Shown here: positions 14,001-20,000 of the stretch, piece by piece | Position numbering within the stretch: position 1 is the stretch's first letter | How the letters are laid out: each line of letters starts with the position of its first letter | Origin: Phoronis australis | Lineage: Eukaryota; Animalia; Phoronida | Direction: 5' to 3' | Assembly: GCA_002633005.1 (NCBI GenBank) | Contig: NMRA01000032.1 | Location: forward strand, 724,911 to 788,910 | DNA: 64,000 nt | Made by a program: the position numbers and the translations under genes | The notes under the pieces: generated by a model | The model's input: the letters and a program-made list of their open reading frames with translations, nothing else | The model's database searches: none | What the model was told of the DNA's origin: nothing

Positions 14001-17000
14001 TGACTCGATATCTGTCAAACTCTTGAAAACAAAAAATAGCACCTTCAAAATCTCTCGTATGCAAAATCTCTCATACACAAATAATTAAACTGAGGTTTGA
14101 ATCAGTGTATAAGTTAACGCAAGATTTTCATTCTCGAAACAAATATCTTGCCACGACGAACAACTTTGATGATGAGGTTCCCATGATATCTACTTACTTT
14201 TTGACGTGCCTCACTTCCAACTTCATGTCTTCAGTAAGCATTCCACTGTGTCCAGCCTGTTTGTAGACTGCAAAAAACAGAAAAATCAGTTAAACACTAC
14301 AGAAAAAAATGTGATACATGGAAATAAAACGTAATGGGGACTTACAAGAGAATATTAACACTTACTAAAATTTAATAAATTCATAAAGTGTGAGTTCAAC
14401 TTGTGTAGTCAGACCTGATCATTAAATAGATAACAATGTTATAAAGGTATTATTTTCAATACTGCAATGGAATTCTTCAAAAATTTTAAGTGGTAAATCA
14501 AACAAAATGCTTGGAATAAATTTTACTTTTCAAAGCTAACTTTAATTTAAAAAACATGTGTAGGCCAAACACTTTGAAATAAAACTTTCAAGAACTTACA
14601 AAAAATGAAACAAAACCACAAAAAAGCAATGGACTTTAGTGAATTGCACCTATGGTATCTCAAGGTTATGTCCCCTTTTGCTTCAGCAAAAGGTCAGAGT
14701 TCATTGCCCAGCTAAAATCTCCAGCCAGCAACTCCAGCTGTGCCAGGCTCTTTGCATGAAAGCAGACAATTGGTTGCCAGGTGAGATGAGTCCAAGGCCT
14801 CTAATTTGATTGGATGATCTCCAAAATCATTCACATGATGCCCAGATGACCCACAGTCAGGACTCATTCACATCTACTGAAGAACCAGGAAACCAGTCAG
14901 AGAGCAGAGTTCTATGCCAATAGACTGGACAAAATGGACCTGACTGTTCGCAGCATCAATGAAGAACAAAGACACAATGAACTGGGAGTGGAGAGTGATT
15001 CCTTGGGACTGAACCCATCCATGAATGGCAACAATAAGACAAATGACAGGCAAGTGGATAAACTGAAGAATGACTCCACAAGCCCAAGTAGTGAACAAGG
15101 TACGCTTGACCTCTTATCCTTGGTCCAGCCTCAAACAGTTGCAAAACTCTACTTTTAAACTGAACTTACTTTGAACTCAAAATAACAGAAGTGGCATAAA
15201 CATATATCTTGCCCAGGAGGTTAATAATTATTTAAGAAATTCACAAATTATCAATTGAATTTACAGTCCCATAACTGAATTGTTATAGCACACTATGGAA
15301 TGTGGGTTTTCAATCTGCAGCTCTGACAGGCAACGTTTGTCTATCAATGGCCAAGTTATGTTACCCTTTCCCCCTAACCAATAAACGCCTTTACAAGGCA
15401 ATCAAATCTTATTCAAGGCAAGCAATGAAGTACTTGTGTAAGTTATCTTCATTAAAACGAGGTCAATCCTGCATAAAATCAGAACTAACAGAGCGCATGC
15501 CAGTTTGCAGATCCATCCTCAGCCTTTAATTGGGACCACTTTCTGCAAAGGTTGAAAATTTCTTTTACATATTTTGTTTCCAGTCCTACTTTTCTACTCC
15601 AAACTTGTGCATAACTTCACAGCTGCACCAAAACTTTCCCCGATTATCATGTAAGATCAAGCACTGTTTAGATGGACAAGACCAAAGCCCCACTTTGGTT
15701 TCGACTGCATAAAAAGCCAACTAAATGCTTTACAGTACACTGGGGCTACTCAGCCAGAACGCTTCAGTTTCCCCAATTTTGTAGCTTCCAAAACCATTTT
15801 GCAGATGTAAAACATATTTACATCAGTTCAGATTTTCTGTTCTGAGCTTTAATAAATAATCGAATCCTAAATAAAATTAACTCTTCTATGTTACCATATT
15901 TTGAGTATGAATCTAATTGGTGTAACCTAGTGAGAAAAAAACCTTAGTATGTATGTTCCACTATTAATTTGATTGACTTAATTTTAATGAAAGTGCCATT
16001 CAACATGAATGTTGCTTTAAGAGTGAGTACCTTTCAACAGACGTTATACAGCGATGATGTAATATTACAAAATGGTGATAGCAAAAATGGCAGTCATGTC
16101 AAGTTGCTATGAAGCCAGATTCCGTCAAAACAGTGTCTCAATAAGACCACTTTTAAACCTGGCCTCAACATGTTCCTATAATGGAAATAGAGGTGACTCC
16201 TGGGCATGGCAGGACCTGAATGTAATTTCTTGACATCGAGGCTCAACAAGATGACTCGTCACTGCGGGTCGTTTTACACTCCCAGCATGGTGTCCAACCC
16301 ATAAATCACTGGTCATCTGATTGAGAAACAAGTCGCGACCAGTTTTATTCTCATGGTAAAGTGGTCAAAATCAGAAGTTAGCGTCTTTGACGGTACATTG
16401 GTTTATAGCAGTTGAAAAATAAATAACACCATCCTGTACTAATTTCCAGCAGTCGTCTTCTCCCACTATAAGTACTTGTCCACAACACCGAGCTTTCATG
16501 GTATGCAGTGCGCAGAATTGAACCAGTCAAGCTCACAGTCTTCAATTGTTCAACAATCCGATCTGAAGCCCCAAGGTAAACAGGACTACCTGGCCGCACC
16601 CGAACTGACATCCACGACCAGCAGTGCACTGCTGGACTACCACCCGCAGCCAGAACCGTCAGTGAACACGGCAAAGTATGAAAATGTAGAGAGAAACCCA
16701 AGTGGTCAAATTCTGGATGAGGTTGGACAACCGGTACGCCGACCAATGAATGCCTTCATGATTTGGTCTAGAGAAAAACGACAACAGATGGCGAAACAGT
16801 TCCCCAAAATGCACAATGCCGAGATCTCGAAACATTTGGGTACAGAGTGGCGAGCTATGACGGACGGTGAAAAGAAGCCGTTCCTAGAGCGTGCGAAAGA
16901 ACTGCGCACTGAGCATATGAGGAAGTACCCTAATTACCGCTATACACCACGTCGGAAGGTGAAGTCCCAGTCGAAAATCACTAGTGACATGAAGCTGCCT

Positions 17001-20000
17001 GCCGCAATAATAGAGCAGCACCATCCTTATCCGTACTTGTACCGGCCAGTTCTGTACTCCGCTGGTTTCCCAAACGCTGCTGTCGCCACGACCCAATCAC
17101 CAATGGCAACCTATCCACGCTTTCCACAATATCTACCACAGTACTATCCGGGGTTTGGCTCACCGTACACAGCACAGCAGCGCCACCCATCGGCTTACTT
17201 GTGGAACCAGTCAATGATGTATGCTACTCCGCCATATACCGCACCATTTCACAACGGGGGCCAGCTGCCCCGAAGGTGTGGATCGACGTCCAGTTCATAT
17301 AGCTCAACTTCCAACTACAGCTACCCTTCCAGCCTATCATCAAGTCCCACGTTTGACCAGCAGCAGCAGCAGCAGCAGCAACAGCCTGGTTCACCAGCGC
17401 CATCTGTGGGCCAGCAGTCGCAACCCATCAGCCCAATCAGCGACGACGCAACAAACACCACCATAACAGAGAATGACTTGGGTGAAATGATCAACATATA
17501 CCTGCCTGAGAATGATGTTTAAACTGCAACTGCCAACTGGCAAGACAGACAGAGGCACTGCGTGTTTGGGAGATAAAGGAAATGGAAGCTAACTTTGCTG
17601 CTTTACAACCCAAAGGATCAGGTGACATTCACACTATAGGAAAAGATCAGTGAGACCGCAAAAATGTACATATTTTTTAGTTTCAAATAAAGTATAAGTT
17701 TGTATCAATATCATTTTCTCCACAGCATGTATCTGCAGTCTGTGAGTCCATAGGTGTAGAACATTTTCGTGAGTACTTTTGCCTGGCAATTTATTTTATG
17801 TATATTTTTTGTATTTCTAACTCATAATTTAAAAAGTTCCCACATTTCACATGTTGAGCAGTAGAGGGCGCTGTAAACAACAGCGTTAACCAATCAAACA
17901 CAGAGAAACTCATTTCTGGTAGATGCACACACTGTAACCAACAATGTTTAAATACTTGAGACAATATTTTTATCAATAATGCCACATTGAACACAACTCC
18001 AAATTGTATCACTTTGCCATTCTTCACCAGATTCACTTGCACATTTTATTGTTCCATGAATGAGGTAGAAAATGTTGAAATAAAATTGCCACGCGAACGC
18101 ACTCATGAAATTTTGTTTTAAAGCTCAGGGCCCAGTTTAACACTAGAACACACCTTGATCACAAGGATTAGAATTATTAAAGAGTGTTTACCTGTGTTTG
18201 TAAAGGACTGTATGTCATAAGTGAGGTCAATATTCAAATGTTCCGTTTTCCTGAACAGCAAACCAATGAACCACTTTAAGACATATTTTCCTTCGCTGGA
18301 AATGAAAATAAACCAGATAAGTCAGAATGCAAAAACAACTGTCTTATGGAATGAGTAGTCAGCCTATTGTTACTCCTAGCAAAATCATAGGAAAATTCTC
18401 CAACACAAGCAAATGTTGATAGAAGCCAAACGTTAAAGGATATTAGAATTGAAACATGGTCAATTGTAATCAGGGATTTTTCTCAATAAGTGAAATATAA
18501 CCTCATCAATCAAACATCACGTTTACTAATTTGTGATCGGGGCACATAATTACAGGTATTTTATGATTGCGATTTACAATCTAACTCACTTAGATGTCTC
18601 TGTAGACACAATAAGCTCGCAAAATCTCAAAGTCACTCAAGACTTTGGGAGATATTGCCATGTATTGCGAGTGAAGAAACCGATCACACTAACTTCCTTT
18701 GCCAGATTTCTTGTGTCTATGGAACTCGGCCCAAGCTTGTGCTACAAGAGCCTTTGGTACTTTTTAAAACCAGTAGCCAATTTTTTGACAATTATGCATT
18801 TTTAACATAGTTTTAATCACTTTTGCTGAACATTGAGAAGTTCAAAAAGGTTATTACCTTTCAACCCCATAGTTTTATTGTGACAGGGTTTAACTCTTTA
18901 CTAGAAGAGAAATTCCTACATTGAATTTTTGGCTAAAGCAAAAATAGAAGAAAAACTGAACTTAAAACATATGCCAACCCCTCCACACTCAGCTGAAAAT
19001 ACCACAGCTTTAAATGAACAGACTGTGAACCATACACAGTCAACAAAACATTCTCCGACTTTAAGTCAAATATCAAAGGTCATGAAGCATTGTGGGTAAA
19101 ACTCAATCATTTCACTGTTATGAGGCTTTAATTCACTGGAGTTTTAATAGGCCTGCCAACTCAAACCTGAGTTTTGAGATGCAAAAGTCAAACACTGTTC
19201 GATATATTTATTTCAATCTGTATACAGCTTTACAATGTAAAGGTAGCATAAATAAATACAGAAAGATCCTGAAATATGGATTATACTCAAGTATTCATAT
19301 TCTTCACATATTCAGAAACGGATACAGACTCCAGGTGTATTTAGATCTTTAACATATGAACTCTAGCTGAGCCATTGCAAATAGAAGCCACATCAATCAA
19401 CAGAGTGCCTACACAATGTAGTCAGCATTTCATCAACAGTCATCCCTGTTCCGCGATCCCAATGCATAAAAAGCCAGGCACAAAACGATCACATTTGTGC
19501 TTTGTACTATTAACGGATAAACTAGTGTTGATCATTGCCACTTGTGAAATGGATTGCAGGACTGCATGAATTCACTGTAGATATCGTATGAAAATTTAGC
19601 TTGCGGGACACTCGCTTCATAGCATGGAACACGCGATAATAACCGCCATAACAAATTTGCAATAAAAACACAGTAGTATTTCACTTTTTACATGACCAAC
19701 TAGTCCCTGGTATTTTTTATTTGTTCTAACACCACAAATCACAGTTAGTTTCTTCATGTGCCTTCCCCCTCTGGTACCGATTCTAACAGAACACTCTACA
19801 GACAAAACATTCCACAATTCCTCATTATGACAGACAGTGGAATTAATGGTCATGGAAGCTCCCAACGCGACTGAAAATGATGAGGCATTAATCAGAAACT
19901 TCACATTTTGGAAACATTATTCTATAATAAAATGAGCCATAGCCATGGAAATAATTTTTTGACTGGTCACTTTCCACGACTGAAAACATGGGAAATGATT

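Follow-up and report, generated by a model that had tools for sequence, protein, structure and literature searches.

SoxB1 HMG boxes are almost invariant across bilaterians, and a Sox gene whose box departs widely from that pattern, lying on the opposite strand inside an intron of a housekeeping gene, raises the questions of whether it works, from which Sox group it comes and what it might do. Such a gene occupies positions 14934 to 17522 (start codon to stop codon, plus strand) of a 64,000-nucleotide stretch of animal DNA (contig NMRA01000032.1, positions 724,911 to 788,910; hereafter the window), within intron 14 of a poly(A) polymerase (PAP) gene. A preliminary description of the locus had proposed an extra, rapidly evolving SoxB1 paralog with SRY-like features. 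Our analysis indicates that the gene is real, working, unusually divergent and very probably SoxB1-derived, with an informative promoter.

Structure and transcription of the nested gene

Three stranded RNA runs of one study (X5, X6 and X7) were mapped, with 18-19% of each run sampled; a further run, X8, reaches just 7 of 30 bins, shows no reads on the Sox gene and is too sparse for use. The reads demonstrate both the nesting and the splicing of the gene. The PAP joint 14267->18192, whose CT..AC ends correspond to GT..AG on the minus strand, is crossed by 15 reads in X5, 7 in X6 and 5 in X7, and delimits intron 14 (14268..18191, minus strand), which at 3924 nucleotides (nt) is the longest of the 17 PAP introns measured and more than twice the length of any other, the next being 1754 nt. 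On the plus strand, the Sox joint 15099->16450 is crossed by 5 reads in X5 and 6 in X6, and an alternative acceptor of NAGNAG type 3 nt downstream, at 16453, by 4 and 2 reads, respectively. Pooled over the two runs, 11 + 6 reads thus cross the Sox intron (15100..16449, plus strand; GT..AG, phase 1). Either splice form stays in frame from the ATG at 14934 to the stop codon ending at 17522 and encodes 412 or 411 amino acids (aa). The antisense position in PAP intron 14 and the intact open reading frame given in the preliminary description are thus borne out, by the stranded joints of both genes, with an intron number that matches the exon count, and by two open splice forms.

Exon 1 (14850..15099, plus strand; the start is approximate, the 5' end falling in the bin 14816-14944) was placed by read depth and by the joint, and contributes the ATG and 55 codons, for which there is no Pfam match. 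A short out-of-frame upstream ATG frame (14914-14943, plus strand) overlaps the Sox start codon. Exon 2 (16450..17710, plus strand; the end is approximate) carries the rest of the coding sequence and the main 3' untranslated region at a read depth of 5-18 in X5 and X6 and of 0 in X7. It includes the intronless HMG box of 79 aa (16728..16964, plus strand; Pfam PF00505, E 1.2e-23) and a SoxB1-type C-terminal motif (17475..17507, plus strand; profile score 26.5 bits) that ends five residues before the stop codon (17520-17522). The HMG residues and the C-terminal motif quoted earlier are all present, as are two candidate poly(A) signals: an AATAAA at 17686..17691 (plus strand), likely the main signal, coincides with a drop in read depth after ~17650-17780, and a second AATAAA lies at 18079, with a thin tail of reads continuing to at least 18150.

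Sox-strand reads at 18041-18244 reach toward PAP exon 14, and two X5 reads cover 18205 and 18244 inside that exon. The Sox transcript may therefore not always sit wholly inside the intron: a minor long 3' form may overlap PAP exon 14 antisense, or the two reads could equally be strand leakage. Accordingly, the statement that the gene lies entirely within the intron holds for the main transcript, and needs qualification for the long 3' form reaching at least 18150 and for the two X5 reads in exon 14. The Sox 3' region also contains short dispersed repeats (17765-17800 and 17848-17896), to which many other contigs and reads match in part. Around the gene no flanking repeat of 25 nt or more was found, shorter ones not having been sought; there is thus no target-site duplication of that size, and RNA-based and DNA-based copying are indistinguishable.

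Over 16364-17653, sense reads number ~91 in X5 and ~89 in X6 (estimated from depth; ~6 per kb per million) and 0 in X7, whereas the 12 PAP joints listed are crossed by 130 reads in X5, 81 in X6 and 82 in X7; where the Sox gene is on, its read depth is roughly equal to that of PAP. Being silent in X7 while PAP is on, the Sox gene is regulated independently of its host, whose own expression shows no visible decrease in the runs where Sox is on. The locus itself appears to be carried by X7, because two well-matching PAP-strand reads of that run lie across 14816-15073, over Sox exon 1. Together with the constraint described below, the RNA reads exclude an untranscribed and neutrally evolving sequence, an outcome that the preliminary description had named as fatal to its proposal.

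Divergence and constraint of the HMG box

A single HMG box with RPMNAF, 57% identical to that of the canonical SoxB1 of Ptychodera (Sox-3-like P0043), places the gene in the Sox family, for which PMC3029401 cites a threshold of >=46%. Among 195 SoxB-like boxes compared with Ptychodera SoxB1 (median identity 88.6%, minimum 64.6%), none is as far off as that of the nested gene; four SRY-type boxes are at 67-73% and one SoxC box at 63%. The changes are unevenly distributed. Relative to the SoxB majority, 34 of 79 HMG sites differ, comprising 8 of the 46 near-invariant sites versus 26 of the 33 others (Fisher p 5e-8), a comparison that is partly circular in that near-invariant sites were defined on proteins retrieved with the query. 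Nine of the ten residues through which SOX2 hydrogen-bonds to DNA (PMC8431565, Table 2) are kept, the sole change being S31A (p 0.023). K57, R60, M64, R75 and R76 are retained; changes have occurred at R19 and R73, two residues that PMC8431565 additionally connects with phosphate or OCT4 contacts. A structural model of the box (predicted local distance difference test score, pLDDT, 90.6) adopts the three-helix, L-shaped Sox fold with a root-mean-square deviation of 0.9 Å to SOX2 in 1GT0. Given the hydrogen-bonding residues kept and the fold of the model, we conclude that the box is under constraint and that its DNA-reading face is conserved.

Differences from X1 contigs are fewer in coding sequence (3 of 1193 bases) than in non-coding sequence (~28 of 2590 bases; p ~0.006), the count being approximate, with 13 of the 15 differences of record 4 listed; the depths of the X1 contigs (4-9) are not usable as copy number. 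Rapid change appears to be specific to the Sox gene, as its neighbours are slow-evolving: a PAP exon shares 41 of 53 residues with PAP alpha, and a cyclin K exon 44 of 53 with cyclin K (both counted from alignments).

No close relative was found among the best 120 of 820 matches, the best 150 of 8744 matches from 1.84 billion representatives, or 80 of 298 metagenome loci. The best HMG identity is 63.6% (271 alignments of at least 70 aa), the best full-box identity among the metagenome loci is 56%, and an ESM Atlas search returned generic SoxB-like clusters and nothing more specific. Four of the metagenome loci (L001, L004, L005 and L008) hold other divergent SoxB-like boxes, 52-54% identical to the nested gene and, for L001 and L005, 59% and 72% identical to canonical SoxB1; strongly diverged SoxB genes thus occur in other animals too.

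Double E-boxes in the putative promoter

The putative promoter (14735..14848, plus strand) contains no TATA box and holds five E-boxes, of which four make up two CANNTG-N5-CANNTG elements (at 14767 and 14832); a third double E-box with the same 5-nt spacer (15040..15056, plus strand) lies inside coding exon 1. Three of the four double E-boxes in the window fall within 14767-15056, and such a three-pair cluster occurs in none of the other sliding windows along the sequence (1270 positions, minus those that overlap the site). Three pairs at any single spacer of 0-24 nt occurred in 2 of 30,000 simulated 500-mers. Because the motif was selected post hoc, the cluster is a strong lead rather than proof.

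Human and fly Twist bind the double E-box with a 5-nt spacer in chromatin immunoprecipitation, the other basic helix-loop-helix (bHLH) factors tested not being enriched (PMC4378193). We predict, with about even chances, that the three double E-boxes convey bHLH input to the Sox gene; that the factor is Twist specifically, with expression in mesenchyme or the muscle lineage, is a tentative and somewhat unlikely extension of that prediction. Twist has an established role in mesenchyme or the muscle lineage, to which its input, if present, would point. The region 14268-14850 is CpG-poor, with an observed/expected ratio of 0.06. The possibility that an unmethylated CpG island covers the Sox gene was rejected, the ratio of exon 2 (0.76) matching that of PAP exons (0.77).

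Relationship to SoxB1

Taken as a whole, we favour with moderate confidence the reading that the gene is an extra SoxB1 copy nested antisense in the PAP intron, acting as a Sox-site activator of restricted expression under likely Twist-type bHLH control. The assignment to SoxB1 draws chiefly on the C-terminal motif. The profile for this motif was derived from 16 seeds that exclude the query, and only tails longer than 40 aa were considered. None of 5000 shuffles attained the 26.5 bits of the nested gene, and scores of at least 20 bits were obtained for 29 of 67 B1-like tails, 0 of 118 B2-like tails, 0 of 9 SoxC tails and 5 of 43 unassigned tails. The D-to-Y spacing of the motif is eight residues, as in SOX2, versus seven in Sox17 (sequences in 10.1101/2022.09.23.509242). 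The best sequence match among solved structures is to SOX2 (105.7 bits); the B2 signature residues H2 and P78 are absent; and the SoxF/SoxE domains Sox_N, Sox17_18_mid and the SoxF tail give no Pfam match at E<=5. As regards SoxB2 linkage, no second Sox-like frame is present among the open frames of at least 70 aa in the window. Together with WSR, PKMHN and K57, the motif suggests that a SoxB1 origin is very probable.

Several observations weigh against the favoured reading. In HMG trees of 37 and 25 rows, hand-chosen from a pool of 251 boxes and a further 11 boxes from loci, and containing no SoxE or SoxF references, the gene forms a long branch with no supported grouping, and approximately unbiased (AU) tests reject none of six placements (SRY, B1, B2, C, D and H; p 0.27-0.41, with 0.405 for B1). 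SOX17 follows SOX2 closely among solved-structure matches (101.9 bits) and is first in a fold search. Both B1 signature residues, R2 and T78, are absent, their positions being occupied by P2 and V78; signature residues have exceptions in highly divergent sequences, according to PMC3029401. The group-B box that should follow the HMG box (Pfam SOXp) gives no match at E<=5, as the preliminary description had also reported; of three control SoxB1-like proteins, P0003 and P0010 do match and P0002 does not. Among the four coding differences in a listing six variant rows short of complete, three are nonsynonymous (S/T/A exchanges near the C-terminus). The E-box pattern was selected after inspection of five motif classes, and four double E-boxes window-wide are unremarkable, a number attained by 9 of 100 shuffles. 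Since the trees are undecided and the signature residues and SOXp are absent, with the terminal motif as positive evidence, the gene is on present sequence grounds best called SoxB1-derived and not a formal SoxB1 member. Of the earlier proposal of an extra, rapidly evolving SoxB1 paralog, the parts supported here are that the gene is transcribed, spliced, constrained, very divergent and equipped with a SoxB1-type C-terminal motif; that it is an extra paralog is a likely reading.

Proposed origin and alternative explanations

Under the favoured reading, a SoxB1 copy would have entered PAP intron 14 and been tolerated there, its splice and poly(A) signals lying off the PAP pre-mRNA strand; that these signals face away from the PAP strand would explain the survival of the copy. 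It would then have acquired a first exon and a bHLH-responsive promoter of its own and changed at surfaces that do not contact DNA, a canonical SoxB1 elsewhere presumably keeping the old role. That the gene is a duplicate, with constraint relaxed by a canonical SoxB1 elsewhere, seems likely. It is predicted with similar assurance that the product binds and bends DNA at ordinary Sox motifs, for which K57, R60, M64, R75 and R76 are kept, and that it does so with altered partners, because change or loss has affected R19, R73, the group-B box and the SUMO-type site. Activation through the tail, rich in P/Y, S and Q, and the terminal motif is probable to a lesser degree, and the product would likely activate Sox-site targets in limited tissues, cell types or stages.

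One alternative is that the gene is not a recent copy but belongs to a poorly covered, older set of divergent SoxB genes, as in cnidarians, the host being a non-bilaterian or a member of a poorly sampled phylum. Such a group would accord with the markedly diverged group-B genes that make up 6 of 14 Nematostella Sox genes (PMC3029401), with the residues E16-K17 common to the nested gene, Hydra SoxB1 and SoxBb (supplement S2), and with the CpG-poor promoter, which may reflect a long stay in a methylated gene body. We nevertheless consider it improbable: the searches of 1.84 billion representatives (best 150 of 8744 matches) and of 80 metagenome loci brought up no close relative, the additional HMG residue found in the cnidarian SoxBa/Bb/Bc types is absent from the gene, and its matches by eye to Hydra SoxB1 (47 of 79 HMG residues) and amphioxus SoxB1a (46 of 79) are at the level of canonical SoxB1. 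Rather less probable is an SRY-like regulator, a SoxB1 copy switched on in the gonad or germ line of one sex and evolving fast for that reason. Mammalian SRY is derived from SOX3, and germline bHLH factors also use E-boxes. The nested gene is on in two of three samples of one study, its box is further diverged than that of SRY, and, of all rows used for the trees, it is an SRY that has the highest HMG identity to it (61%). High divergence marks Sry and bivalve Sox-H, yet the same source cautions against identifying sex genes by high divergence alone (PMC12530298); furthermore, X7, in which the gene is off, apparently carries the locus (two PAP-strand reads), the gene is located in a housekeeping gene, and no SRY grouping is supported. 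The SRY-like character proposed in the preliminary description is thus not supported beyond fast divergence, given trees without an SRY grouping, a locus apparently carried by X7 and a promoter that points to bHLH/Twist-type control rather than to sex-specific input; no result here ties the gene to sex determination, and the SRY parallel is an analogy. By the same analogy, an independent invertebrate counterpart of SRY, in which a SoxB1 copy that entered a housekeeping intron and diverged beyond SRY would serve through a bHLH promoter as a switch in the gonad or germ line of one sex, would be a long shot.

Slightly less plausible than an SRY-like regulator is that the gene is the sole SoxB1 of the species, moved into the PAP intron and accelerated, with the ancestral role in ectoderm or neural progenitors kept. 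Retention of the C-terminal motif, K57, R60 and M64 would fit this, but SoxB1 boxes are near-identical in fly, nematode, annelid, mollusc, urchin and human, the neighbouring genes evolve slowly, and the SUMO-type site has been lost as well as the group-B box. An origin in Sox group F, C or H, with a convergent terminal motif, could draw on the nearness of SOX17 in score and fold rank, on A31, which is as in SoxC, and on AU tests that do not reject C, D or H; it is made very unlikely by a motif spacing that is that of SOX2 and not of Sox17, by the lack of matches to Sox_N, Sox17_18_mid or the SoxF tail, and by identities of 41-46% to C, D and H locus rows versus 57% to SoxB1. Finally, the idea of an assembly artefact, or of a pseudogene that is transcribed while decaying, with which the duplicated blocks of the window (maybe uncollapsed haplotypes) and the three nonsynonymous changes among the four listed coding differences would agree, is largely refuted and deserves almost no weight, for the frame is open over 412 codons, splicing is in frame, DNA contacts are selectively kept and coding variation is lower; X6 Sox-strand reads extend to 18150, where the mapped stretch ends, and the unaligned ends of these reads are similar to the genomic sequence that follows toward PAP exon 14.

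Comparison with known Sox genes

The nested gene shares with canonical SoxB1 genes (SOX1/2/3, SoxNeuro and P0043) the residues RPMNAFM, WSR, PKMHN and K57, an intronless HMG box, a tail rich in P/Y and S, and the C-terminal motif. Unlike them, it lacks R2/T78, the SOXp box and the SUMO-type site, ends five residues past the motif, has an extra coding 5' exon and is nested in PAP. As an additional, lineage-specific and divergent SoxB gene it resembles the extra SoxB1 of Saccoglossus kowalevskii, with which it was compared by description only, and amphioxus SoxB1a/b (PMC3029401); amphioxus SoxB1a, with the 46 of 79 matches given above, is said to lack B1 motifs, is listed beside SoxB1b and is not in PAP. 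With mammalian SRY it has in common a fast-diverged box, with Y67 shared with three of four SRY-type rows and A31 and N69 with two of four; it is more diverged than SRY (57% versus 67-73%) and keeps K57, which is changed in all four. The cnidarian genes NveSox3, NveSoxA and HmSoxBb have diverged to a similar depth and share a few residues with it; their HMG tail contains an additional residue that the nested gene does not have.

The surveyed gene counts indicate that extra SoxB copies are known, being uncommon in bilaterians and routine in cnidarians. The Saccoglossus gene is an additional divergent SoxB1 described without an ortholog elsewhere, amphioxus has three SoxB1 genes and Nematostella six diverged group-B genes (PMC3029401); a single SoxB1 is reported for each of eleven echinoderms (PMC11218330) and likewise for one sea cucumber (PMC13228809); Capitella has two SoxB genes (PMC5539756); and no clade-restricted Sox is reported for bivalves (PMC12530298). 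As a small one-intron gene on the opposite strand of a long host intron, with expression different from that of the host, the Sox gene resembles known nested antisense genes (PMC5174743). According to the same source, duplicates commonly come to lie nested in antisense; nested genes often originate as young duplicates, and ~71% of the Drosophila cases are antisense. The literature searched, which covered few subscription papers, yielded no account of a Sox gene that lies within a poly(A) polymerase gene.

A working copy with 43% of its box changed and its DNA-reading face kept offers a natural test of DNA-binding against partner surfaces. If the Twist-type promoter is real, the gene would be a compact case of an ectodermal or neural regulator rewired after relocation, and comparison of empty and filled forms of the conserved PAP intron across relatives would allow the insertion to be dated. 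The survey in PMC11218330 filtered Sox candidates on RPMNAFMVW, in which the nested gene has I for V; surveys filtered on that motif could thus miss it, and such copies may be undercounted.

The surrounding genes

The window is intron-rich animal DNA with a GC content of ~38% and contains cyclin K (minus strand), PAP (minus strand), seipin (plus strand), head to head with PAP, and one acetyl-CoA synthetase exon. PAP was identified from three exons that match Pfam PAP_NTPase or PAP_RNA-bind. Homologue searches with a PAP C-terminal exon and with an acetyl-CoA synthetase exon gave no matches, an ESM Atlas search with a seipin exon yielded nothing informative, and Rfam gave no match. The two exons that flank the Sox-bearing intron are exon 14 (18192..18295, minus strand; the upstream boundary is approximate), with its joint at 18192 and a PAP_RNA-bind match (E 1.4e-4) below the curated cut-off, and exon 15 (14198..14267, minus strand), delimited by the joints 13033->14198 and 14267->18192.

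An intronless frame of 242 codons (54355-55080, plus strand) has by eye a divergent kinase fold, with a glycine-rich loop, a lysine motif and altered catalytic motifs; it gives a weak choline-kinase Pfam match (E 0.023) and no meaningful solved-structure match. Tandem near-identical blocks occur at 30234-31755 and 32327-33841, and also at 29646-29973 and 31757-32083 (98.6% and 95.1% identity). Each large copy contains what is likely the first exon of PAP (near 30886 in one and near 32972 in the other) and the first seipin coding exon (31463-31702 and 33549-33788), and the blocks at 30234-33841 are either a duplication of the promoter shared by the head-to-head PAP and seipin genes or two uncollapsed haplotypes. 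Within seipin, further stretches are duplicated at 94-96% identity (39324-40055 and 42021-42760; 41478-41958 and 42979-43458), so that one coding exon occurs twice; these likely represent uncollapsed haplotypes or a local duplication.

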